Below are positions 2,337 to 62,879 of a DNA stretch of 64,000 nt, piece after piece. Source of the stretch: a virus (taxonomy: Duplodnaviria > Caudoviricetes); IMG/VR virus record IMGVR_UViG_3300009095_000001, positions 33,538 through 97,537 of that record; one strand, written 5' to 3'. The notes below the pieces were generated by a model, which had not been told where the DNA came from, ran no database searches, and saw only the letters and a list, made by a program, of their open reading frames with translations. The translations under genes were made by a program, and so were the position numbers. How positions within the stretch are numbered: position 1 is the first letter of the stretch; each line of letters opens with the position of its first letter.

Positions 2337-3469
2337 ACGGGTGCGTGGATCCTGGTGTAGCCCAGCAGCGAGCGGGCGTGTTCGATCTCTTCGGGCGTGA
2401 CGGTGCCGAGCAGCTGATCGGCGAGCATGCGCGCGCGCGTGTGCCGAGGTTGTTCGCGATCACCAGGCCACCGGCTGACGAATCGGGCCCGGATCGCCGC
2501 GGTGATCATCTGCTCGCGCGCATCGGCGAGTGCCTCGCGGACCGGCCTCACCGTCTCCGCGTCAATGTCGGCCGCGCGGTTCAGGTACTCCGGCTCGCAG
2601 CCGTTCGACTTCGGAAACGCCGTGCTCAGGCGCCGCGCCTTGTCGAGCACCGCGAGCTCGAGCGTGCGCACCAGGTAGTCGCACCGCTGCGCCGACGCGA
2701 CGAGCAACGCCTCGGGCTTGGGCTCGGGGGAGTCCGGGCCTTCGCCAACCAGCCGCGGCCCTTCGTAGGTGTCGCCGAGAAGCTCAGCGCACATGTCGAG
2801 CTGGTCGGACGTGCGCGGGTCGTCCGGCATGCCCGCCAAGATCTCGCACAGCTTGGAGTCGTCGTAGCTCGCCCGCTTGGGCTTGGGCTTCGCCGGCGCG
2901 TGCGGTCGACGGGTGAAGTTTGGCCGGCTTGTCGGTGGCGGGCTCGCGGGCAGCCGCTCCATGTAGCTCTCGCCGATCACCAGCGCGGCGCGTTCGAGCC
3001 GGACCATCTTCCACGCAGCCCGGTCGAGCTCAGCCTCGCTGACGCCCGCGAGCACGGCCGCCTTGGCGATCGCCACCAGCCGCGGATCCGCCAAGCTCTC
3101 CACGCGGCGGATCGGGTACGCCACGCCGTTGTCGAAGTCGTAGGCCCCGCGGCCCCATCCGATCGCTTCGACCTCCGCGACCGCAGCGAGGAACCGCGAG
3201 CGCCAGGCGATCGTCAGCTGCTCAGGCAGCGGGTCATCGGTCTCGCCGAGCAGCTCAGCACCCAACCGCTCGCGGACCGAGCCAAAGCCGCTGGGCAGCT
3301 CCGGCACGTAGCCATCCCGGGCGCGGCGGATCAGCGTGTCCGCGTGGGCCAGCAGCGCGCGCGCGCGCGTCTGCGGGTGCAGGAGACGGCGGCGATCGGC
3401 GAAGCGGCGGCAGTGCAGCCACGATGCCTCGCGGGCTTCCAAATCAAGCGACACAGCCGGCCTCCACAA
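2333..3469 (-). CDS. Hypothetical protein
   Basis: Long ORF overlapping both neighbours; no motif recognised. Confidence 0.6.
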   Translation of the reverse strand: MWRPAVSLDLEAREASWLHCRRFADRRRLLHPQTRARALLAHADTLIRRARDGYVPELPSGFGSVRERLGAELLGETDDPLPEQLTIAWRSRFLAAVAEVEAIGWGRGAYDFDNGVAYPIRRVESLADPRLVAIAKAAVLAGVSEAELDRAAWKMVRLERAALVIGESYMERLPASPPPTSRPNFTRRPHAPAKPKPKRASYDDSKLCEILAGMPDDPRTSDQLDMCAELLGDTYEGPRLVGEGPDSPEPKPEALLVASAQRCDYLVRTLELAVLDKARRLSTAFPKSNGCEPEYLNRAADIDAETVRPVREALADAREQMITAAIRARFVSRWPGDREQPRHTRARMLADQLLGTVTPEEIEHARSLLGYTRIHAPV

Positions 3470-4028
3470 ATCGGCGCTCTTTCAGCGCGCTCATGCTGTA
3501 CTTCACCAGCACCACCATGCCCACGCCGCGCGCGTCCGCTTCGTCGCTGCGCGCCTTGTCTGCTCGCGCCCGCTCGGTCTTGGTCTTGCCGCCGCGCTTG
3601 AGCAGCAGCGGCCCGGTCTGGATCTCGATCGCCTTCGTGACCTCGGCCTTGGGCGCGTTGCCGTTGCCCGTGACGAGCTTTTTGATCTCGCTCGGGGGCA
3701 CCATCGCGGTCGGCAGCTGCCAGCGCGCAGCCTCCATTTCGAGCACCGCCGCCTGGCCGAACAGCACGCGCGCCGACTTCCAGTCGCGGCCCGTGAGCCC
3801 GTAGAGGATCGGGCGCTCGAACGCGATGCCGCATAGCCGGTCGACGTACTTGCGGACGAATTTCGACAACTGCGTGCGGAAGCTGGCCCATCGGTCGCCC
3901 TCGTGCTCGCCGTCGTCGATCTCCCAAAAGCCGGACGCGTACAGGTGACCGTCGACGGTCCACAGTGCCCAGCCCACGATCGACGCGAGATCGAGGCAAA
4001 GGATCAAGTCGTGCTGTCCAGCGGACAT
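3444..4028 (-). CDS. RuvC-like Holliday junction resolvase
   Basis: ILCLDLASIVGWA, IAFERP, PSEIKKLVTGNGNAPKAEV, DEADA: RuvC acidic residues and the GNGxAxK motif. Confidence 0.85.
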   Translation of the reverse strand: MSAGQHDLILCLDLASIVGWALWTVDGHLYASGFWEIDDGEHEGDRWASFRTQLSKFVRKYVDRLCGIAFERPILYGLTGRDWKSARVLFGQAAVLEMEAARWQLPTAMVPPSEIKKLVTGNGNAPKAEVTKAIEIQTGPLLLKRGGKTKTERARADKARSDEADARGVGMVVLVKYSMSALKERRFVEAGCVA

Positions 4029-12286: not shown

Positions 12287-13051
12287 TCAGGTCAGCTTGG
12301 CGAGCTCGGCCTTGGCCCACTTCTCACCGCGAGCGAGACCCTTGTAGAGCGACTCCAGAGCGTCGTGATCGTCGTGGTCGAGCTGCTCGGCTGACTCCTT
12401 GCCGACGTACGCGAGCATCTGAGCCGGCTTCACGTTGTAGCCCTCGAACGCCTTCACGCCCGGGGCCCATCGCGAGATCGCGGGTTCTCGCTTCGTGCTC
12501 GAGCGCTCGGGCTCGGGACCGCTCTCGCCGTCGTCGTCCTCGCCCGCCGCGATGCCGGCCATGCTCGTCAACGCGTAGCGCTTGACGTAGGTGATCGCGT
12601 TGCCGACCGACTGGATCGCGCGCAGGCCCTTGAGCGCCTCGAAGGGCACGCAGAAGTCGGCCTCGACCCACTCGCCATCGCAGGCCAACCGCGTGGTGAT
12701 GTAGAGCTTTTTGTCGCTCGGGTTGGTCCACGGGGTCTGGTAGCGCGCGACACCGTGCTTCGACAGCGGCTCGCGGATCGCCACGACGACCGCGGCCAGG
12801 TCGGCGTACTTGCTCTTGAGGTGGGGATTGTTCTTGTTGAGCTCGGCGTTCCGCATCTCGCCCTGGGCAGCCGAGAGCGCGCGGTCGAGCTTCGGCGTCG
12901 CTCGGTGACTCCACCGATAGGGCCCGACGCGCAGCGTCGCCTCGATCTCGGCCGCGAGCGCGTGGTCGTCGTGATGATCGGGCTCGGGAGGCTCGCTGCC
13001 GTCGCTCGGGACTTGGTCGTCGTATTCGGTGTTTTCGTCGTAATTGCTCAT
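12287..13051 (-). CDS. ERF-family ssDNA-annealing protein
   Basis: NPHLKSKYADLAAV, PLSKHG, QSVGNAITYVKRYALTSMAGIAAGEDDDG. Confidence 0.92.
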   Translation of the reverse strand: MSNYDENTEYDDQVPSDGSEPPEPDHHDDHALAAEIEATLRVGPYRWSHRATPKLDRALSAAQGEMRNAELNKNNPHLKSKYADLAAVVVAIREPLSKHGVARYQTPWTNPSDKKLYITTRLACDGEWVEADFCVPFEALKGLRAIQSVGNAITYVKRYALTSMAGIAAGEDDDGESGPEPERSSTKREPAISRWAPGVKAFEGYNVKPAQMLAYVGKESAEQLDHDDHDALESLYKGLARGEKWAKAELAKLT

Positions 13052-14010
13052 CGTCGATTGCTCCAACGGGAGGTCGGCAGCGTGACCACGCCCCGACCCT
13101 CCCCGGGTTTCTTCCAGTCGTCAGTGATTCGCCGGTCCACGATCTCGGCGAGTCGTTTGCGGTACTCTGCGCGACCTTGTTCGATTTCATGTTCTGGCAG
13201 CTTGTAGACCCATGTTTCGTGATATCCCGCGTCGTCGCCCTCGCTGCCGATCACGACGAAGTAGAACCCCACGTCGCGACCGGTCAGCGCCGCGATTGCG
13301 TCGGAGTACATCGCGTCCTGCACGTGGTAGCCGTAGCGGAAGACGCTGCGCATGAAGCCTTGCGGTTCGGGGTCGCCGGCCGTCTTGAGGTCGGTGACCA
13401 CCAGCCCCGGTTCGAGGTCGGTCCCGTAGACGTGCTCGCAGTCGAGCTCGACCAGGCGATCGAGCCGGCACTTCACGAGCAGCCCGCTGGTCGGCTCGCG
13501 CCACAGCACGGTCTGCTCGTTGCGGCCGGGAGCGCTGAGCAGCGCGGCGGCCTCGGGATGCGACCAGGCGCTGGCGACCATCTGCCGGATGCGATGAAAG
13601 TCTGCCAGGCTCACGTCGATCCGGTCGTGGATCTTGGCCATGAGCTGCTCTCGCTGCTCACACGCTTCTCGCCATTGTTCGTAGAGCTTGCGCGCGTGCC
13701 TTCCCTCGGGCGTCGACTTGCTTGCGTTCCCGCTCGCGCCCTTCGGTCGCGGGACTTCGGGGATGCCCACGCGTCGGACCCACTCGGGCAGTTCGAGCAC
13801 GGCCAGGTGCACGTAGACGCCTCGGTCCTTCGCGTCGCTGCTGTCGTCGGGCACGTCGATGCGAAGCCCTTGCTCCCACCGTCGCCAGAACGTGCGTGGC
13901 TTCGCAGCGCACAAGCTGAGCGACGAGCGGGTGAGCGCGTCGGTGTCCGCGAAGTATTGCTCCGCGGTCCAGTCGACCAGCATCGCCTCGCCTAGTTCGA
14001 GCAGCTTCAC
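13048..14010 (-). CDS. PD-(D/E)XK exonuclease, RecE/DUF3799-like
   Basis: GVYVHLAVLE, EQTVLW, KCRLD, DLKT, YGYHVQDAMY. Confidence 0.88.
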   Translation of the reverse strand: MKLLELGEAMLVDWTAEQYFADTDALTRSSLSLCAAKPRTFWRRWEQGLRIDVPDDSSDAKDRGVYVHLAVLELPEWVRRVGIPEVPRPKGASGNASKSTPEGRHARKLYEQWREACEQREQLMAKIHDRIDVSLADFHRIRQMVASAWSHPEAAALLSAPGRNEQTVLWREPTSGLLVKCRLDRLVELDCEHVYGTDLEPGLVVTDLKTAGDPEPQGFMRSVFRYGYHVQDAMYSDAIAALTGRDVGFYFVVIGSEGDDAGYHETWVYKLPEHEIEQGRAEYRKRLAEIVDRRITDDWKKPGEGRGVVTLPTSRWSNRR

Positions 14011-15979: not shown

Positions 15980-16261
15980 TCACCCAGCGAGCAGCGACCA
16001 CAGCATGATCACGACGCTGCCGAGCGCGACCGTGATCAGGACGCTCCACGCGGCGGTCTCGGCTGCTGATCGGACCATGGCGGGATCGTGACCCCGGCCG
16101 TCGGTCCGTCGAGGTCAGGTCATCCGCCAGGCCAACCGCAAGCCGCCAGCGAAGCCGAGCAGCCCGAGCGCGAGGTAGTCGGCGGTCGAGCACGTCACCA
16201 CGACCGCGAGCAGGGTCAGGGTGTGCAGGCCAAGCAGCGTCTTCATGTCGAGCGTACCCAT
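15980..16261 (-). pseudogene. Small multi-TM protein with in-frame TGA at 16115-16117 (candidate immunity gene; pseudogene or split)
   Basis: My translation: MGTLDMKTLLGLHTLTLLAVVVTCSTADYLALGLLGFAGGLRLAWRMT*PRRTDGRGHDPAMVRSAAETAAWSVLITVALGSVVIMLWSLLAG; same size and position as 17919-18191. Confidence 0.45.
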
Positions 16262-16373
16262 GGTCTCGGTCTGGCCCGGTAGCGCGCGGACGCCAGCGAT
16301 CGCGGCGGAAGCAAGCCGCGCAGCCGGGCCGGACGATCGACGCTCGAGAAGGTCCGACCCGGCGAGGCTGGCG

Positions 16374-17048
16374 TCAGCCGCAGACCGCGGGGGCCGGCTT
16401 CTTTTTCTTTTTCTTGGCCTGCGCCGCAGCGTGGCAGGTGCAGACGGTGTCGACGACCGCCTTGGGGCAGGTGACCCCCCAGCCCGGATTTGTTGGCAAG
16501 CACGAGAACACGGCGACGAGCACCCGCAGCGCGCAGTCGAACCACGGCCCGGGCTGCGGACGGTTGGGCGGGCTGACGTCCTGCTCTCCGAGCGTGGCGA
16601 TGATCAGCTCGATCCGGCTGGCGATCTCCAGCTGCGTGGCTTCCTCGCTGGGGTCGGTGCTCGTGCTGACCACCGCGACGTTTTCGAGATCGACGAGCGC
16701 CCAACTCCGCGCGTCGGCGAAGGTGGCATTGACCGCGACCACGGTTGGTGAGCCGTCGACGGGGTCGAGCTCCACGCGAGCGACGAGCAGTCCGTCGTGA
16801 TCGAGAGCGTCGAGCACCACGATCCCGTCGTCGTCCAGTTGCATGACGACGGAGTGCAGCTCGTTGGGCCAGGGCGCGGGCTCGAGCTGGTGAGGGTCGA
16901 GCAGCTGCTGCGTGTCGGGCTCGGGCTTGCCGGGCTCGGCCGTGCTGGTCTCGCTCGCGTCGTTCGGGTGGTGCTGGGCTGGCCCGGCGTCGGTGCAGGC
17001 GAAGGTCAGCGCCAGGGCGGTCAGGAGTGAGGTTATGCGTGTGTGCAT
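16374..17048 (-). CDS. Lipoprotein with acidic N-domain and six-Cys cationic C-terminal peptide (paralog A)
   Basis: Signal plus lipobox-like TFAC; C-terminus WFDCALRVLVAVFSCLPTNPGWGVTCPKAVVDTVCTC...KKKKKK...VCG. Confidence 0.75.
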   Translation of the reverse strand: MHTRITSLLTALALTFACTDAGPAQHHPNDASETSTAEPGKPEPDTQQLLDPHQLEPAPWPNELHSVVMQLDDDGIVVLDALDHDGLLVARVELDPVDGSPTVVAVNATFADARSWALVDLENVAVVSTSTDPSEEATQLEIASRIELIIATLGEQDVSPPNRPQPGPWFDCALRVLVAVFSCLPTNPGWGVTCPKAVVDTVCTCHAAAQAKKKKKKPAPAVCG

Positions 17049-17382
17049 CCGGGGACCGTGGCCGTGCGGGCAAGCGCAGCCAGGGTGCCAGATTGCTGTT
17101 CAGTCTCGCCGACCCGCGCGCCGATCGGGATCAGTCTCGAGCGCGCGAGCACGAAAAAGGCGGCTCCCACCATTGGGAGCCTCTGCCCGCCGCGCGGCTC
17201 GGCTCGGTCCGCAGCATCCAGCCGCCCGCGTGGCTCGACGAGATCCCGCTGCCCGGAGCTGCGCCGCCTTGGCTGGGCGCGGCCGCTTGCTGAGCGGCGG
17301 GCCGAGCGAGAACAGCGAACAGTCTCAGCGGGCGCGACGGCGAGCGCGTGACTGGCCCGCTGGCCTGCGCAGGCTTGTCGTG

Positions 17383-17937
17383 ATGATCAACCAATCGATC
17401 CTTCTCGCTCTCCTACTCAGCCCACCGCCAAGCTCGCCGCACGAGATCGATGCGCCGGACTTCGCCGACCAGCTCGACCACGTGGACGTCACGGTCAGCG
17501 ACGACGATGCGGTCGTGGTCGCCTTCGATGAAGCCGGCGAGGCCATCGCCTCGCTCTCGATCTGGGTCGACGCTCGCGGGGTGACGTGGCTCGCGACCGA
17601 CTACGCGGACGGCTACTCGCTGGTCAGCGTCGACCCGATCACCGATGAAGTCACCCGCGAGGGTGATCTCGACGACGCCGTGCTCGCTGATCGCTACGAA
17701 GCGCTGCTCGATTACCTCGATGACCCGGCCGCACCATGGGAAAAGAAGGGCAAGGATAAAGGTGCCAAACCGAATCACACGTGGAAGAAGTGCGCCTTTT
17801 ATGCGGTGAAGGGCGGCGTGGCGTGTGCCCTCGTCAGCCCGTTCGGCTGCGTGTGGGGTGGGGTCAAGATGGCGTGCGCGTGTGTGCCCAAGGTCGTCAA
17901 GGAATTCGAGGAGTACTCATGCCCACTCGGCCTGTAG
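17383..17937 (+). CDS. Secreted protein with acidic N-domain and six-Cys C-terminal peptide (paralog B)
   Basis: MINQSILLALLL; N-domain aligns by eye to paralog A; WKKCAFYAVKGGVACALVSPFGCVWGGVKMACAC...SCPLGL. Confidence 0.75.
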   Translation: MINQSILLALLLSPPPSSPHEIDAPDFADQLDHVDVTVSDDDAVVVAFDEAGEAIASLSIWVDARGVTWLATDYADGYSLVSVDPITDEVTREGDLDDAVLADRYEALLDYLDDPAAPWEKKGKDKGAKPNHTWKKCAFYAVKGGVACALVSPFGCVWGGVKMACACVPKVVKEFEEYSCPLGL

Positions 17938-18191
17938 ATTGGTCGTGGTCACGTGGCTGGGCGATCGTCGCCGCCTTGCTGTTGGTCGTCGAGGCTGGTG
18001 CGAACGCCTACTTCAACGCTCTCGATCAGCAATGGCTGGGCATGGCGCTCGCGGCATCGCTCCCGCTCGCCGCCGGATACACATGGTGGACAAGGCGGTC
18101 GCTGGGTCCCGAAGTGGCCGCGGTCGCGGACAACATGCTCGTCTACGTCATGTTTGCGCTCGGGCTGTACGCCTGGGTGATCTGGCCGTGA
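17919..18191 (+). CDS. Small 3-TM membrane protein (candidate immunity)
   Basis: 90 aa, three hydrophobic segments; start overlaps the end of paralog B. Confidence 0.7.
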   Translation: MPTRPVDWSWSRGWAIVAALLLVVEAGANAYFNALDQQWLGMALAASLPLAAGYTWWTRRSLGPEVAAVADNMLVYVMFALGLYAWVIWP

Positions 18192-18638
18192 CCGTGAACG
18201 CGGCAACGGCCGGCGCGCCGTGAATGGGTCGCCGACCCGGCGGTGGTGCCGAGCCGAGCCGAGCGCTCGGCAGCATCGAGCCAAGCGCGAGCGCCCACTA
18301 GCGTGAGTTTTCGTGCGTCGCGTCGACGTTCCGATCGGCCGCCTATCGACCGATCGGAACGCCGAACGAATGACCTAAAGACCACCGCGCGGGCAAGTTG
18401 AGACAACTGCGCACGCGGCGGTCGGAGCGTGGCGATCTGACACACCGGGGTGTTATCGTGCGCACAAACGAGCCGGCCTGTTGGCGCAGACCGGCTCAAG
18501 ACCACCAGGGAACGACGAATGAAGGCTCAAAACATCGATTTGGTAGATGAGCGCACTTTAGCGCGTTGGGTTACGCGTGACCAGCACCCCGGCCTGCGGG
18601 TGGGGAATGTCGTCGGGGCACGCGGTGTCCGGAGGCGC

Positions 18639-19256
18639 ATGACCGGACAACGACTGACCATCACCGCGGCTCTTGCCGCCTTGCTCGTGATCGCCGGCTG
18701 CGATCCCGAGCTCGACACCACCAACACCGAATTGCGCAGTATCTCGCCGATCAGCTGGTCGAGCGTGGGCTGCATGACCAACGGCGGGACCGATCGCTGC
18801 TACGCGCGGACGGACGAGGGGACCGACTTTCGGATCCCCGTCGTGAGCGCGTGCTCGCTGGCCGCCAAGGTCGAGAGCGGCGAATACGTCGAGACCGACG
18901 ACGGCTGGTATTGGAGCTGCGACTACGGGCGCTCGCCGGAGACCTTCACCGACGCGATGTGCTTCCACGATTCGGCGACGCACGTGGTGTGCTTCGGCGG
19001 GAGCGACGGCTGGTACACGAAGGTCGAGCCGTACTGCGCGGGCGCGAAGTACAACGTGCCGGTCGATCCGTACTGGCCGGAGACGGCGTGCCGCGGAGGG
19101 CTGGCGAGCACCTACCACAACTACGATGGCATCTACGTCGTCGACGGTGGCACGCCTTGGTGGGGCCGCGCGGCGAATGGAGACGACGCGTTCTACGGCT
19201 CGCCGTCGTGCGCCATCCCGACCCTTCACCCCGCGGGCAACCCCTACGATTGCTGA
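18639..19256 (+). CDS. Cys/Trp/Tyr-rich lipoprotein
   Basis: GGAGG RBS; LTITAALAALLVIAG-C lipobox; many further Cys. Confidence 0.8.
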   Translation: MTGQRLTITAALAALLVIAGCDPELDTTNTELRSISPISWSSVGCMTNGGTDRCYARTDEGTDFRIPVVSACSLAAKVESGEYVETDDGWYWSCDYGRSPETFTDAMCFHDSATHVVCFGGSDGWYTKVEPYCAGAKYNVPVDPYWPETACRGGLASTYHNYDGIYVVDGGTPWWGRAANGDDAFYGSPSCAIPTLHPAGNPYDC

Positions 19257-19298
19257 AAGGAGTCCGCCATTCCTCGATGACGGGATTCAGTGACCACC

Positions 19299-19760
19299 AT
19301 GCGTAACGCAATTCTAACAACCATCCTCCTTTGTCTCTCCATGCCCGCTTGTGACGCCGACGATGAGGACTTTCGTGGCGATTACGACAGCATGCTCGTC
19401 GACTGCGACCAATATGGCCAATGCTGGGCGATTCAGCCTGGCGGCTGGGATGCTTGGGCGGCAGCCATCACGAATGTCCAGATCGATGATGCAGTGGCAG
19501 CTGGCGTGCTGGTGTCGACGCGCACCAAGATCGCTGGCGATCAGTGCTGGCGGATTGCAGGGACCGACGGCCACATGTGCGCAGTGTTCCTCGGCACGGT
19601 CAAGCTGATCGGCCGCCCCGAGTCCGAGTTGGTCCTCACGTCGCCAGCGCAATCGTGCTGGTTCGAGGGGCTGTGGGACTACAACCGGTCGGGCTCCGGC
19701 ATGTGCTTCGGGGTCATTGAAGGCGTAGCTGTCCAGCTTAGCTACGCACCCCCGTTCTAG
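19299..19760 (+). CDS. Cys-rich lipoprotein
   Basis: MRNAILTTILLCLSMPA-CDADDEDFR; three Cys pairs. Confidence 0.75.
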   Translation: MRNAILTTILLCLSMPACDADDEDFRGDYDSMLVDCDQYGQCWAIQPGGWDAWAAAITNVQIDDAVAAGVLVSTRTKIAGDQCWRIAGTDGHMCAVFLGTVKLIGRPESELVLTSPAQSCWFEGLWDYNRSGSGMCFGVIEGVAVQLSYAPPF

Positions 19761-19780: not shown

Positions 19781-19814
19781 AAAGCGACCAGGCGAAGCTT
19801 GGTCGCTTTTTGTT
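19781..19814 (+). terminator. Rho-independent terminator (probably bidirectional)
   Basis: AAAGCGACCAGGC-GAA-GCTTGGTCGCTTT-TTGTT between convergent genes. Confidence 0.8.
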
Positions 19815-20860
19815 TACCTCTGCGGGTTGACTACGCGGATGGTGGATTCACGAATCTTGCACGTAGCAGCGGCGTTTGGATCACACTTCAATCGATAGAG
19901 TCGGCCCACGGACACGCCTGGAGTCAGTCGCCTGGCGATGCGAAAGAACGACCACTTCGCTGCGTCAGAGTTGTCGTTCCAAAATACCGTGACGGGGTTC
20001 CCCTGGTCGCTATATGTTCCGGATCCGTCGTCGTATTGTAGCTGTAAGACCACGTTGTCTCCGCCGCCGGTGTTGACCTGCCCCCATCCCTCCGCGATGA
20101 CGAGCACCTCGCTAGACTGCGGCAAACAGCGAACACTAGTGACCAGCGCAAGATTGGTAGCTTGAAGCGCGGTCTCGGCCTCTTGCTCTCCTGTCGCGTA
20201 GGTCCACCCGTTTGTGCTGTGGTGCACATAGTTCAGCGCAGGGTCGTCCGTCGGCCGATAGACCAGATTTCCGTTGCTATCGGCTACGAGTTCACGCTCG
20301 CTCGCCGGGGCAACGGCCGGCGAGAGCTTGACTACTCCGGTTGTCAATTTCGCTCCGGTGGTGATCGAAACGTCGGCCTTGTGCTCCGCTGTGTCGTTGA
20401 ACGCCGCAGGTTTATTGAACGTGGCCGTGTTATCGAATGTCGCGGTATTCTTGAACACCGCTGCTCCGTTGAAGGTGAACGTGACCGTCGCCGACGTCGA
20501 CACCGGACCGTTGAATTCCGTGGTCCCGTTGAAGTCCGCCTCGGACCCGTTCGCCATGATCAGCGAGCTCCCGGACTCAAACTCCACCGTCGCGTTGTCG
20601 CTCACAAACAACTGCGCGCCGTCGAGAAGCGTCGGCGTTCCCGACCACTGCCAGCTATTCAGCGCCGTGGCGACCTGGTCGAATACCAGCCCGTCCAACG
20701 TCCCGCCCTGGCTCAGCACGATGTTGACGAGCTCCATCTGAACCGAGTTGCACCACTCAGGGCTGAGCTGCGTGGGTGGAGTGTCCGTCGTGCCTTTGAA
20801 CCCGTGGAGCCCGGGCCCGAACATGTTGGCGACAGCCGTAGGAGTGAGGATGACCTGCAT
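19814..20860 (-). CDS. Tail fibre protein (Mu gp49/S-type N-terminus)
   Basis: GFKGTTDTPPTQLSPEWCNSVQMELVNIVLSQGGTLD...DQVATAL anchor motif; hexapeptide F(N/D)xxAx shaft repeats; lower-GC C-terminal domain. Confidence 0.75.
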   Translation of the reverse strand: MQVILTPTAVANMFGPGLHGFKGTTDTPPTQLSPEWCNSVQMELVNIVLSQGGTLDGLVFDQVATALNSWQWSGTPTLLDGAQLFVSDNATVEFESGSSLIMANGSEADFNGTTEFNGPVSTSATVTFTFNGAAVFKNTATFDNTATFNKPAAFNDTAEHKADVSITTGAKLTTGVVKLSPAVAPASERELVADSNGNLVYRPTDDPALNYVHHSTNGWTYATGEQEAETALQATNLALVTSVRCLPQSSEVLVIAEGWGQVNTGGGDNVVLQLQYDDGSGTYSDQGNPVTVFWNDNSDAAKWSFFRIARRLTPGVSVGRLYRLKCDPNAAATCKIRESTIRVVNPQR

Positions 20861-53908: not shown

Positions 53909-53981
53909 AGCGCGGTGGAGCAGTTGGTAGCTCGTCGGGCTCATAACCCGAAGGCCGTCGGTTCAAATCCGGCCTGCGCAA
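53909..53981 (+). tRNA. Initiator tRNA-fMet (CAT)
   Basis: Full cloverleaf; anticodon stem TCGGG-CTCATAA-CCCGA with three G-C pairs; unpaired 1:72 (A:A); GTTCAAATC T-loop; CCA not directly encoded. Confidence 0.95.
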
Positions 53982-57098: not shown

Positions 57099-57508
57099 CC
57101 AGGCCGACCGTACTCGCTGCAATCACCCACACCGCGCTGCTGATCGCCGTGGCGATCGGCTGCCCCCAGCCCGACCCGATCGTCGCCAAGCCGGCCCCGG
57201 CCGTGCCCGCGACGAAGCCCAAGAGCCCTCCCCGGCGCACCGTCCTGTGCATGCCGCGGGAGGGCGTCCCCGTTGCGTGGGACACTTCGCAGATGAGCAT
57301 ACTTTCGCCCAACGCGTGCGGTGCCGAAGCTGTGCCGCTCCCCTGCGACCGAGGGACCGCCTGCGATCGCTACGGCTGCACGTGCCTCTGCGATGATGAC
57401 TACGGGACCGCGGACTGCGACGAAGCAGCGCTCTACCTTCGGCAAGAGCACGGCGTGGAGCTGGTGACCAGCTGCGAGCACTCGCTCTGCGGATGGGCCC
57501 GACCATGA
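57095..57508 (+). CDS. Cys-rich lipoprotein
   Basis: ALLIAVAIG-C lipobox; Pro linker; many Cys. Confidence 0.7.
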   Translation: MTRPTVLAAITHTALLIAVAIGCPQPDPIVAKPAPAVPATKPKSPPRRTVLCMPREGVPVAWDTSQMSILSPNACGAEAVPLPCDRGTACDRYGCTCLCDDDYGTADCDEAALYLRQEHGVELVTSCEHSLCGWARP

Positions 57509-58137
57509 GCCGGACCGTCAAGCCGCCGTGCCCCATGGGTAAGTTCGTGGTGCTCGAAGGCATCGACGGGAGCGGCACGACCACGCAGCTTGGGCTCGTC
57601 GCCCAGCGCCTGCGCGCCCGCGGCCACGTGGTGCACGAGACCCGCGAGCCGTCCGGCGGGCAGTGGGGCCGGCAGATCCGCGAGCTGCTCGCCGCCCCGC
57701 CGAGCTCGGTCAATCGCAGGACCCTCGCGCAGCTGTTCGCGTCCGATCGGATGGATCACCTGCGCGACGAGATCATGCCCGCGCTGCACTCCGGCAAGGT
57801 CGTGCTCTGCGATCGCTACGTGATCTCGTCGCTGGTCTACCAGGGGCTCGACTGCGATCCCGAGTGGGTTCGCAAGATCAACCGCTACGCGCGTCCGCCC
57901 GACCTGACGATCGTTCTCGAGCTCCCGGCAGAGCTCGCGGTCGAGCGGACGGCTGCGCGGCGGCAAGAGACGGGCGAGTCGGTCGAGATCTACGACCAGA
58001 TCGACACGCAGCGCCGGCTTGCGGAGGCGTACCGCGACGCGATCAAGCGCTACCGCCTGGCGAGCGTGAATGCGACCGCGAGCGTGGGCGTGGTGACGGA
58101 GCTGATCCTCGAGCTCTGCGTGGGAATCGGGCTGTAG
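57505..58137 (+). CDS. tmk: Thymidylate kinase
   Basis: FVVLEGIDGSGTTTQ, TREPSGG, LFASDRMDH, VLCDRYVISSLVYQG, PDLTIVL. Confidence 0.93.
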   Translation: MSRTVKPPCPMGKFVVLEGIDGSGTTTQLGLVAQRLRARGHVVHETREPSGGQWGRQIRELLAAPPSSVNRRTLAQLFASDRMDHLRDEIMPALHSGKVVLCDRYVISSLVYQGLDCDPEWVRKINRYARPPDLTIVLELPAELAVERTAARRQETGESVEIYDQIDTQRRLAEAYRDAIKRYRLASVNATASVGVVTELILELCVGIGL

Positions 58138-60798: not shown

Positions 60799-61659
60799 AT
60801 GCGAGATCGACAGCACCGCGCTGCGGCACGCCACGGCGACGCCGCCCGCGAGATCGCCAACGGCCTGCGCTCGATCCAGGCCAAGAGCGGCCACAACCTC
60901 GCGCGGATCTGGGACGACTGGATCAGCTCGATGGCGCTGGCGATCGCCAACAAGTGCGACCGCCGGCCGGCCGCTGTGGAGCGCCGCGAGGCCGAGTACA
61001 TGCAGATCGTCAAGGCCCACAAGCGCGAGACCATGTTCGCCTATCGCGACATGCTGCACGCCGTCATCCGGGGCATGGACACCGATCTGCCGTTCGACTT
61101 GCTCGGCTCGGTCTACATGGCGCTCGAGCTGGGCAGCAGCCACGCGGGCCAGTTCTTCACCCCCACCGACGTCTGCACGCTCATGGTGAGGATGGCCGTC
61201 GAGCCCGAGGATCTGCGGGAGATCGTCGAGCGCGACGGGTTCGTGACCACGTGCGAGCCGTCGATCGGCGGCGGGGCTATCGTGCTGCCCGTGCTCTCGG
61301 CGATCTACGAAGCCGGACTCGTGCCCTTCCATCATCTGCACGTGGTCGGGATTGACGTCGACTACACGGTGCTGCGCATGGCCTACGTCCAGCTGTCGCT
61401 TCTCGGCGTGCCCGCGGTTCTCTACGTCGGCGACACGCTGCGGATGCAGATGCGCGACGACTGGTTCACGCCCGCGCACGTCGCATTCGGCTGGGGCGCG
61501 AAGCTCCGGCGCCACCGCGAGCGCGAGGCGATGGAGCGCAAGCTGGCCGAACTCGGCGTAGGATTGACGCGTGATCAAGCGAAAGCTGATCCCGCGCCGG
61601 TGGTTCCGGCCGAGCCCGCACCCGCGCCGTCGCAAGGCTCGCTGTTCGATGGCTGGTGA
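60799..61659 (+). CDS. N-6 DNA methylase-like protein (HsdM N-half, no NPPY motif)
   Basis: DLLGSVYMALE...GQFFTP, EPSIGGGAI, GIDVD...MAYVQLSLLGVPA...GDTL. Confidence 0.85.
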   Translation: MRDRQHRAAARHGDAAREIANGLRSIQAKSGHNLARIWDDWISSMALAIANKCDRRPAAVERREAEYMQIVKAHKRETMFAYRDMLHAVIRGMDTDLPFDLLGSVYMALELGSSHAGQFFTPTDVCTLMVRMAVEPEDLREIVERDGFVTTCEPSIGGGAIVLPVLSAIYEAGLVPFHHLHVVGIDVDYTVLRMAYVQLSLLGVPAVLYVGDTLRMQMRDDWFTPAHVAFGWGAKLRRHREREAMERKLAELGVGLTRDQAKADPAPVVPAEPAPAPSQGSLFDGW

Positions 61660-61662
61660 CCG

Positions 61663-62031
61663 ATGACAGACCCGTATCGACCAAAGCCCGAGCGGCAGCG
61701 CTACACCATCACGGTCAACGGCCACGTGATCGAGGGCGAGCACTTCCGCGAGATCGCCGAGCAGCTGCGCGCGCTCGGGCTCACGACCAAGATGATCACC
61801 GACATTGCTGGTCTGGCCGTCATGGCGAAGGGGCCGGTCAAGATGACGATCGAGATCGAAGATCTCGAAGCGCTCGAACGCGGGACCCGTTGCCGTCGGT
61901 GCCAGGGCGTGGGCGTGACCAGGTGGGCCGCGTTCGTATCGGGCCTTGCGTGGCTGTTGGCGGGACTGGTCGGCGCCGACGTCGAGACGCCGCCCTGCCC
62001 ACGGTGTGGCGGGACCGGGAGGGTCGGTTGA
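61663..62031 (+). CDS. Hypothetical protein with CxxCxGxG zinc finger flanking a hydrophobic segment
   Basis: CRRCQGVG...CPRCGGTG. Confidence 0.65.
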   Translation: MTDPYRPKPERQRYTITVNGHVIEGEHFREIAEQLRALGLTTKMITDIAGLAVMAKGPVKMTIEIEDLEALERGTRCRRCQGVGVTRWAAFVSGLAWLLAGLVGADVETPPCPRCGGTGRVG

Positions 62032-62879
62032 TCACGACGCACGCGCAGCGCTGGTACCGACGGCGCGAGAGCTACAGGCCGGTCACCGAGGCCTCGATCG
62101 GCTCGCTCGAGCACGAGGTCGCCGAGATCCCCGACGACACCACGGCCAAGGCGTTTGTCCTCGAGCACCACTACTCGGGCAGCTACGTCAGCGCGAAACG
62201 GCGCTTCGGTCTCTACTGCGGCAAGGCCAAGGTCGATCCCGAGACCGGCAAGCCGACGGGTCACCTGGTCGGCGTCGCCGTGTTCTCGACGCCCGTCAAC
62301 CCGCTAAGCCTGGACCCTGCGCCCGGCGACAAGGACAGCCGCGCCGAGCTCGGTCGGCTGGTCCTGCTCGACGACGTTGCGGCCAACGGTGAGAGCTGGT
62401 TCTTGGCGCGGTGCTTCGAGCTCTTGCGGCGCGAGGGCTTCACGGGGATCGTGAGCTTCTCGGACCCGGTCGCGCGCACGAACATCGATGGCGATCGCGT
62501 GCACCCGGGGCACATCGGCACGATCTACCAGGCGACCAACGGCGTGTATCTCGGGACGTCGAAGGCGGAGACTCGGCTGCTCTTGCCCGACGGCACGATG
62601 ATCCCCAACCGGCTGCTCACCAAGATCCGCAAGGGCGAGAGGGGTTGGCGGTACGGGGTCGAGCTGCTCGAGCACCACGGCGCCGATCCTCTGTTCGCGT
62701 GCGCGGATGCAACGGCCTGGCTCCGCCGCGTGCTGCCGACGATCACCCGTCCGCTTCGGCACACGGGCAATCATAAATACGTGTGGGACTTGGAGCGCCG
62801 CGGGAAGCGGGCACGGCTGCCGCCGTCGAAGCCCTACCCGAAGCTCGCGCTCGGGCAGCTGGGCATCTTCGCGGAATGA
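62028..62879 (+). CDS. Mom-family adenine modification protein (GNAT-like)
   Basis: AKAFVLEHHYSGS, LVGVAVF, ELGRLVLLD, NGESWFLA, IVSFSDP, GHIGTIYQATN.VYLG, KYVW; TTG start overlaps upstream stop. Confidence 0.88.
   Translation: MITTHAQRWYRRRESYRPVTEASIGSLEHEVAEIPDDTTAKAFVLEHHYSGSYVSAKRRFGLYCGKAKVDPETGKPTGHLVGVAVFSTPVNPLSLDPAPGDKDSRAELGRLVLLDDVAANGESWFLARCFELLRREGFTGIVSFSDPVARTNIDGDRVHPGHIGTIYQATNGVYLGTSKAETRLLLPDGTMIPNRLLTKIRKGERGWRYGVELLEHHGADPLFACADATAWLRRVLPTITRPLRHTGNHKYVWDLERRGKRARLPPSKPYPKLALGQLGIFAE

Follow-up and report, generated by a model that had tools for sequence, protein, structure and literature searches.

Pore-forming colicins (E1, Ia, A, and N) enter the inner membrane from its periplasmic face by means of a helical hairpin that is hydrophobic and buried, and the colicin immunity proteins, which have three to four transmembrane (TM) helices, recognize this hairpin within the membrane. 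The colicin pore domains are ten-helix bundles of ~200 residues that contain no disulfides and are carried on receptor-binding and translocation domains, and these toxins are plasmid-borne and freed by lysis proteins. The CdzC and CdzD proteins of Caulobacter crescentus are contact-dependent glycine-zipper bacteriocins, small, hydrophobic, and Gly-rich, that are thought to act on membranes, and the Cdz operon also encodes CdzI, a small immunity protein with three predicted TM segments (PMC5380434). In contact-dependent growth inhibition (CDI), CdiA-CT, a helical toxin that inserts into membranes as an ionophore, is paired with CdiI, a cognate-specific, very hydrophobic, and highly polymorphic immunity protein of 72-100 residues and ~30% identity (PMC11630599). 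The SitA proteins of Myxococcus are toxic lipoproteins, frequently encoded on prophage-like elements and with the immunity gene downstream; all orthologues have a lipobox, their variable tips are nucleases, their immunity proteins are soluble (e.g., SUKH), their delivery is TraAB dependent, and they are confined to species with traAB (PMC5562445). Here we describe two divergent genes, called A and B, in a 64,000-nucleotide stretch of a tailed-phage genome (Caudoviricetes; IMG/VR record IMGVR_UViG_3300009095_000001). This whole stretch, hereafter the window, spans positions 33538-97537 of the record, which is 97.5 kb long and has direct terminal repeats. Gene A (positions 16374-17048 of the window, minus strand, 224 amino acids [aa]) encodes a lipoprotein-type member of a family marked by a six-Cys helical hairpin, gene B (17383-17937, plus strand, 184 aa) encodes a non-lipoprotein member, and B is followed by a gene for a 90-aa protein with three TM segments (17919-18191, plus strand), its partner. 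We favor, with about as much confidence as doubt, the reading that A and B belong to an exported family whose working part would be a ~32-residue, Gly/Ala-rich, disulfide-held, membrane-active hairpin and that the three-TM partner of B would be its cognate inner-membrane immunity protein.

A preliminary description of this locus had reported that A and B are divergent genes whose N-terminal domains can be aligned, and both statements held up. The two open reading frames (ORFs) are present and have coding-type codon usage, with a G+C content at third codon positions (GC3) of 0.88 for A and 0.81 for B. In a BLASTP comparison, the products shared 23% identity over 163 residues, with an E value of 0.004. 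A hidden Markov model (HMM) built from the relatives of B alone scored A at 35.2 bits (E = 1.5e-9), compared to 13.9 bits for the best of 3000 shuffled sequences, and when applied domain by domain, this B-only model matched both the N domain (E = 4e-5) and the C domain (E = 6e-6) of A. Judged by these profile scores, A and B are true paralogues, diverged copies of an undescribed and unnamed family.

We found few close relatives of either protein in a set of 5.8 billion proteins, 3 for A and 11 for B, one of the latter from an Enhygromyxa metagenome-assembled genome (MAG), while a joint profile returned 192 clusters at 50% identity, 113 of them with E values of ≤1e-10. The family is present in 6 of 73 genomes of the order that holds the Enhygromyxa MAG, with one to seven copies in each, and was absent from all of 400 genomes sampled elsewhere in the phylum. 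Its members are mostly chromosomal and scattered among housekeeping genes, sometimes beside integrases; scans of viral contigs returned no family relatives, and no relative of the phage terminase was found in the family-bearing genomes. Scans of A, B, the partner, and their relatives against Pfam, NCBIfam, PHROG, and PADLOC gave no usable match, the nearest being a weak PHROG match over the beta domain of B to phrog_25380, a family of unknown function (E = 0.004). A 3516-aa match to the family profile consisted of Big_13 Ig-like repeats, covered profile positions 42-84 only, and was set aside as a shared beta-hairpin motif.

In AlphaFold2 (AF2) models, A and B have the same layout, in which a signal or a lipidated, disordered, acidic tether is followed by a six-stranded beta region with a helix, a linker in which P-Q-x-G is usually found, a helical hairpin, and a short tail that includes the last Cys. 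In A, the lipobox ends at Cys18, a residue that is invariant across 17 lipoprotein-type relatives and that bears out the earlier assignment of a lipobox to this protein. The disordered acidic tether of A runs to residue ~55, the six strands lie between residues 66 and 132 and the helix at 136-155, and the hairpin (168-182/190-211) is followed by a Lys-rich tail. The mean predicted local distance difference test (pLDDT) score of this model is 78.8, with values of mostly 83-96 for the folded blocks from residue ~61 onward and of 64-76 for the linker at 151-170. The model of B (pLDDT of 74) has a beta domain at residues 33-94, a helix at 98-113, a disordered linker at 114-133, the hairpin at 134-167, and an acidic tail that ends at Cys180. 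A helical hairpin had been named earlier as one structure that the tips might have, and AF2 predicts it for both proteins; no known fold matched above noise when we searched with the two models (best Foldseek PDB E values of 6e-3 and 4.8e-2 for the two models, no BFVD match below 1e-2, and wide VIA Z scores of at most 5.0 and 5.3, which are in the noise range).

The cysteines and the composition of the hairpin were analyzed in an alignment of ~140 full-length members (137 for hairpin composition). Cysteines C1, C4, C5, and C6 are kept in 131-137 of 140 members, and a Trp precedes C1 in 85 of the 140. The six-Cys scaffold first noticed in A and B thus extends across the family with the spacing given for it, apart from the last gap in B, which is 12 residues rather than 13. 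Cys2 and Cys3 flank the turn of the hairpin; 114 members have the two of them, 23 have neither, and 3 have only one (Fisher test, 5e-23, ignoring phylogeny). Because these two residues are lost together, a Cys2-Cys3 disulfide is suggested, and because such a bond is suggested, the six-Cys protein probably folds outside the cytoplasm. On average, the hairpin has 32.5 residues, a Kyte-Doolittle hydropathy of +1.32, 36% Gly plus Ala, and 4.5% charged residues, compared to 25% charged residues in the N domain; it is free of any charge in 35 of the 137 members and contains ~5 small-xxx-small motifs. A lipobox-like motif was detected in 24-25 of the ~140 proteins (~18%), with B and most of the relatives having no N-terminal Cys. 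The tail has a mean net charge of +1.9 (basic) in the lipoprotein-type members and of -1.6 (acidic) in the others.

The gene for a three-TM partner is the most constant neighbor of the family. A gene of this type, encoding 80-100 aa, directly follows 15 of 18 chromosomal six-Cys genes, often with a start that overlaps the six-Cys stop codon; in the window, the partner overlaps the end of B by 19 nucleotides (nt), and B is translationally coupled to it. Partner proteins make up one family and share a signature of a Pro in TM2, W-x-R-R after TM2, and A-D-x-x-L entering TM3, and the window partner (P0003) matched a profile built without it at an E value of 2.5e-9. Among 16 loci, no conserved neighbor other than the partner was found, and the sampled neighbors were ordinary genes (DinB, gamma-glutamyl transpeptidase, SppA, Lhr helicase, and in one case an integrase). 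Between the phage and the Enhygromyxa pair, identity is 35% for the partner and 61% for its six-Cys neighbor, showing that the partner diverges faster than the gene to which it is joined.

We also found that partners outnumber six-Cys genes. A partner-profile search of five genomes identified 32 partner genes, compared to ~22 six-Cys genes. At loci L050, L051, L053, L054, and L055, all that precedes the intact partner is six-Cys remnants or fragments with frameshifts; at L016, a nonsense codon interrupts the six-Cys gene at one Trp of the hairpin; and at L047, L048, and L052, nothing recognizable as a six-Cys gene lies before the partner. The ratio of nonsynonymous to synonymous substitution rates (dN/dS) is 0.24-0.30 for orphan partners and 0.25 for a paired control, so the orphan partners are under purifying selection. 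Intact partners that outlive their six-Cys neighbors make up the pattern of orphan immunity genes. At L055 (G059:C33, ~740-2730), an ORF with an apparent HNH-endonuclease motif, recognized by eye, ends just before the frameshifted six-Cys remnant, while the partner is intact; the HNH-like ORF may record the destruction of a toxin-like gene.

The hairpin also occurs without the rest of the protein. A 79-aa member at L049 (9335-9584, plus strand, G055:C41) consists of an N-terminal hydrophobic stretch and the six-Cys hairpin, has no beta domain, and overlaps with an intact partner gene; ~6.6 kb away at this locus, the opposite strand carries another partner, which is an orphan. A metagenomic protein of 96 aa (P0158) has the same mini build with a canonical signal. 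Since these mini forms are made of a signal and a hairpin only, the hairpin would seem to function without the beta domain.

A toxin with an intramembrane immunity protein would fit these observations better than a plain two-subunit complex because the putatively stapled and exported hairpin can stand alone, the partner is co-translated with it, the partner survives the decay of its neighbor, and the distribution is multicopy, scattered, clade restricted, and phage borne. In the mechanism that we propose, the precursor would cross the inner membrane via Sec, with lipid added in the A type, and the disulfides would form in the periplasm, where the beta domain and its helix would keep the hairpin soluble or tethered. 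After leaving the producer by a presumed exit route, the hairpin would insert into the cytoplasmic membrane from the periplasmic side and damage it. The producer, and any cell with an orphan partner, would be protected through helix-helix binding of the partner inside the membrane. On a temperate phage, such a pair could be a weapon for lysogens, could make prophage loss costly, or could do both. We hold a wider version of this model with less conviction and would sooner expect it to fail than to stand in full. It would amount to a new class of bacterial protein antibiotic and posits a Sec- or lipoprotein-exported carrier with a ~45-residue stapled hairpin that would attack the inner membrane, a fast-evolving three-TM immunity protein for each toxin, and hundreds of cognate pairs within one marine myxobacterial clade that would be moved by temperate phages and serve as a self/non-self marker, in which case the orphan immunity genes would be a record of past encounters.

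The preliminary description placed a ~90-codon three-TM gene after each of the two six-Cys genes, which is correct for B and only partly so for A. The region downstream of A contains a 93-codon three-TM frame that is cut by an in-frame TGA at 16115-16117. The result is a 48-aa two-TM ORF (16115-16261, minus strand, GC3 of 0.92), which begins 112 nt downstream of A and ends at this TGA, and a 32-aa one-TM ORF in the same frame (15980-16078, minus strand, GC3 of 0.85); by GC3, both halves look coding. The read-through product had no database homologue and scored below shuffled sequences against the partner HMM. The TGA sits where the partner family carries W-x-R-R, which fits a TGG-to-TGA change, and may be a true mutation, an assembly error, or a sign of two separate genes. 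The closest relatives of A are P0005 and P0007, its closest chromosomal relative has no partner gene, and when metagenomes were scanned for A-type loci, the sole result duplicated L005, where an A-like gene is followed by a cytosine methyltransferase-like gene, as read from motifs. A 194-aa database protein, P0006, is identical to A over the first ~111 residues and then continues in another frame, which suggests that another source contains this phage sequence either with an indel or with the gene called differently.

The divergent spacer between A and B (17049-17382) has no coding-type codon bias and is presumed to hold both promoters; it contains no sigma-70 consensus and no Rfam match. Upstream of the A start, the spacer has a terminator-like element made of a G+C-rich 8-bp stem-loop followed by TTTTT (17181-17162, minus strand). 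B and its partner are bracketed by a 25-nt inverted repeat, whose left arm (17183-17207) is 84% complementary to a right arm (18249-18273) that lies 58 nt past the partner stop and is self-complementary too. The 17-nt core of this repeat is found only at these two places in the 64 kb, and at least two matches were obtained in 4 of 100 shuffles; the repeat may have been left by a mobile cassette, may serve as two transcription signals, or may be due to chance. In the Enhygromyxa MAG (contig DATLLB010001004.1, L002), the region directly upstream of the B homologue (3224-3624) contains at least six palindromic units with the core GGAGCGAAATCGCTCC, mostly at a 42-nt period (spacings of 42-124 nt), and this array could be an element like the repetitive extragenic palindromes or an array of binding sites.

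The phage has a GC content of ~67%, baseplate genes of the myovirus type, a RecE-like exonuclease gene at 13048-14010 of the window, and, outside the window, a gene for a tyrosine integrase; because it encodes an integrase, we consider the phage temperate and expect lysogens to exist. The six-Cys region lies between leftward early genes and the rightward terminase gene, among other small accessory genes. Just to the right of the cassette are two genes for Cys-rich proteins with lipoprotein-type N termini (18450-19256, plus strand, 268 aa, and 19290-19760, plus strand, 156 aa), neither of which had a significant Pfam, PHROG, or NCBIfam match (best E values of 0.05-0.07). These two genes join A, B, and the partner in a run of accessory genes for putatively exported proteins that lies between the early region and the terminase gene. 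A 348-aa product encoded directly before the terminase gene (19814-20860, minus strand) has N-terminal similarity to phage tail fiber proteins (phrog_1858, E = 1.9e-7), and its gene is separate from the main tail module (~35-45 kb). Other phage genes include those for a Mom-like DNA modification protein (61656-62876, plus strand), a thymidylate kinase (57493-58134, plus strand), and a tRNA-Met (53909-53981, plus strand).

Several of our results weigh against a membrane toxin with a cognate immunity protein. An export signal had been reported for both six-Cys proteins, and A has its lipobox; the N terminus of B is a short, uncharged, hydrophobic stretch that has no basic residue and no AXA site, which makes it an atypical signal. 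The arms of the hairpin, at 11-15 residues each, are too short to cross a bilayer singly. Family-library and structure searches found no homology or fold match to a known toxin or immunity protein, and no linked transporter or outer-membrane export route was found at the family loci. A consistent downstream TM gene, which had been anticipated for the homologues, is present at most chromosomal loci and lacking after the six-Cys genes at L005, L010, and L023, as it is in cassette A, where a downstream ORF that is interrupted by a stop codon and unrecognizable as a partner would be awkward if A were self-toxic. Partner distance correlates with hairpin distance at a Mantel r of 0.38 and with N-domain distance at 0.35, and because it tracks the N domain about equally, nothing points to an arms race between hairpin and partner. 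Finally, the hairpin tip is neither hypervariable nor seen to be under diversifying selection: pairs of members share on average 25.6% identity in the N domain and 29.6% in the C domain (20.3% without Cys), and dN/dS for the hairpin in three close pairs was 0.23, 0.26, and 0.91, the last of these from few changes. With these points included, a disulfide-bonded, membrane-active module with a cognate membrane protein is still the best reading for B, considering the partner at 15 of 18 loci, the orphan partners, the mini form, and the joint loss of Cys2 and Cys3; cassette A, which has no intact partner, does not share this support. The observations first made at this locus are mostly borne out for B and only by half for A, and the toxin-immunity idea is plausible and now better founded.

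The same comparisons bear on the kind of toxin that had been envisaged. The tails of A and B were said to differ almost everywhere between the cysteines while their N domains align, in the manner of a polymorphic toxin with a conserved carrier and a variable tip, and a relation to halocin C8 or SitA was considered. The layout does recall such systems, in that a small gene lies downstream of one for an exported protein whose C-terminal part is Cys rich, and the ESM Atlas gave a weak lead to a 'Gpos_C8-like' bacteriocin/immunity cluster, with a score of 0.81 that is, however, within the stated chance range of the tool. Across the family, one homologous tip is found in 140 of 140 members, and with dN/dS values that are mostly not raised, it is no more divergent than the carrier. 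Because the tip is not more variable than the carrier, we do not regard the family as a classical polymorphic toxin. The halocin C8 model TIGR04449 (halocin_C8_dom) gave no NCBIfam match at an E value of ≤0.1 for A, B, and two relatives; in six-frame searches of the phage and three host-clade genomes, it matched nothing at the family loci, and its best match elsewhere (E = 0.35) was below the cutoff. No RR motif of a twin-arginine signal is visible in the N termini of A and B. Nor is the family SitA-like, because only ~18% of its members are lipoproteins, compared to all SitA orthologues, in which the tips are nucleases (PMC5562445) instead of hydrophobic hairpins with a membrane partner. A classical polymorphic toxin with swappable tips, related to halocin C8 or to SitA, is highly improbable.

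An explanation without toxicity is that the six-Cys protein is a membrane-tethered periplasmic component whose hairpin docks on the three-TM partner, in an envelope complex with a structural, sensing, or adhesion role. We consider this unlikely, if deserving of attention, since a lipobox, or an uncharged hydrophobic helix with a Pro-rich stretch, could tether the protein and not be cleaved, subunits made in fixed proportion would be well served by the tight translational coupling, selection on both proteins is moderately purifying and gives no hint of being positive, and AF2 packs the hairpin and the preceding helix as a compact unit. However, selected and intact partners would not be expected to remain after decay of the six-Cys gene if the two were obligate subunits, the domain needed for sensing or binding is missing from the mini forms, and a multicopy, scattered, clade-restricted, and phage-borne distribution is unexpected for a core part of the envelope. 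Another proposal shares the toxin-antidote core with the reading that we prefer and differs in the target alone: a stable periplasmic toxin and a membrane antidote would act inside the carrier, to maintain the phage or mobile element by post-segregational killing or to exclude others by a superinfection block. Such a role would agree with the lack of detected export machinery, with the position of the cassettes in the accessory region between early genes and terminase of an integrase-bearing phage, with the 25-nt inverted repeat around the B cassette, with an integrase beside some chromosomal copies (a Pfam match at L040 and an integrase-like N terminus at L043), and with an apparent DNA methyltransferase, identified by motifs, at L005 and L042. 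We nevertheless judge it improbable, given that most chromosomal copies lie among housekeeping genes and have no marks of mobile elements, that there was no PADLOC match, and that the orphan partners are better explained as protection from the toxins of other cells. Least credible, to the point that we give it almost no weight, is a function in phage lysis, with A as a unimolecular spanin (a lipoprotein of the outer membrane whose C-terminal part includes a membrane segment) and the small three-TM proteins as holins. It is true that in A a lipobox precedes a beta-rich periplasmic domain and a run of Lys comes after the hydrophobic C-terminal part, that the three-TM proteins are of holin size, that lysis genes lie just upstream of the terminase gene in lambdoid phages, and that three Pfam models (lysozyme, SLT, and amidase_2) found no endolysin elsewhere in the 97.5-kb phage. 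Yet the family is mainly chromosomal, multicopy, and outside prophages, the phage terminase has no relative in the genomes that carry it, no endolysin lies beside the cassette, no PHROG lysis family was matched, and the hydrophobic arms of A, interrupted by Asp, Arg, and Lys residues and linked by Cys staples, do not resemble a single TM anchor.

To our knowledge, kin discrimination in myxobacteria has so far been explained by SitA, Rhs, and type VI secretion systems and has been studied almost only in Myxococcus. If a membrane toxin with a cognate immunity protein is the correct reading, it would add an unrecognized bacteriocin-like family to the myxobacteria and would mean that a marine host is armed by its temperate phage. 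Because the hairpin is small and presumably stapled and, as seen in the mini forms, can be separated from the rest of the protein, it is an easy target for synthesis, structure determination, and membrane assays, and the ~190 natural variants with paired partners would be a data set on helix-helix specificity in membranes. If the proteins form an envelope complex instead, the family would be a clade-specific curiosity of modest interest.

The unnamed family is new, while the general kind to which we assign it, a membrane toxin with an immunity protein, is known, and we compared it to described systems of this and related kinds. Class II microcins have a double-glycine leader and a linked ABC exporter, neither of which was found in the present family. 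The halocin C8 precursor ProC8 is similar in that a hydrophobic, Cys-rich peptide forms the C-terminal part of an exported pro-protein whose N-terminal part has a role of its own; in ProC8, however, the signal is of the twin-arginine translocation type and the N-terminal part is the immunity protein, whereas here immunity would be provided by a separate three-TM gene. With SitA, the likeness is that A is a lipoprotein on a temperate phage of myxobacteria, and the differences are that most members of the present family have no lipobox, that they share a single hydrophobic tip fold with no Pfam domain, and that their partner is a membrane protein. Compared to the colicin pore domains, the present module is small, at ~45 residues, and has up to three predicted disulfides, and a VIA match to colicins Ia and N (Z = 4.1) was in the noise range. 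The size and fast divergence of the partner match those of CdiI, but the CDI toxins are the tips of giant CdiA filaments exported by two-partner secretion, the ionophore has five helices, CdiI is a two-helix hairpin, and there is no homology to the proteins described here. The Cdz system combines a Gly-rich hydrophobic toxin with a three-TM immunity protein, a pattern that the composition and small-xxx-small motifs of our hairpin and the topology of its partner would fit, and the distribution is patchy and lineage biased in both cases. In contrast to the present family, Cdz has RTX-type leaders, adjacent type I secretion, no beta domain, and no conserved Cys staples; our proteins have Sec- or lipoprotein-type N termini and no linked transporter that we could find, and they are set apart from Cdz by description and not by sequence. 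None of these systems appears to be a relative of the six-Cys family, and Cdz, CDI, and the colicins would be its closest working analogues.

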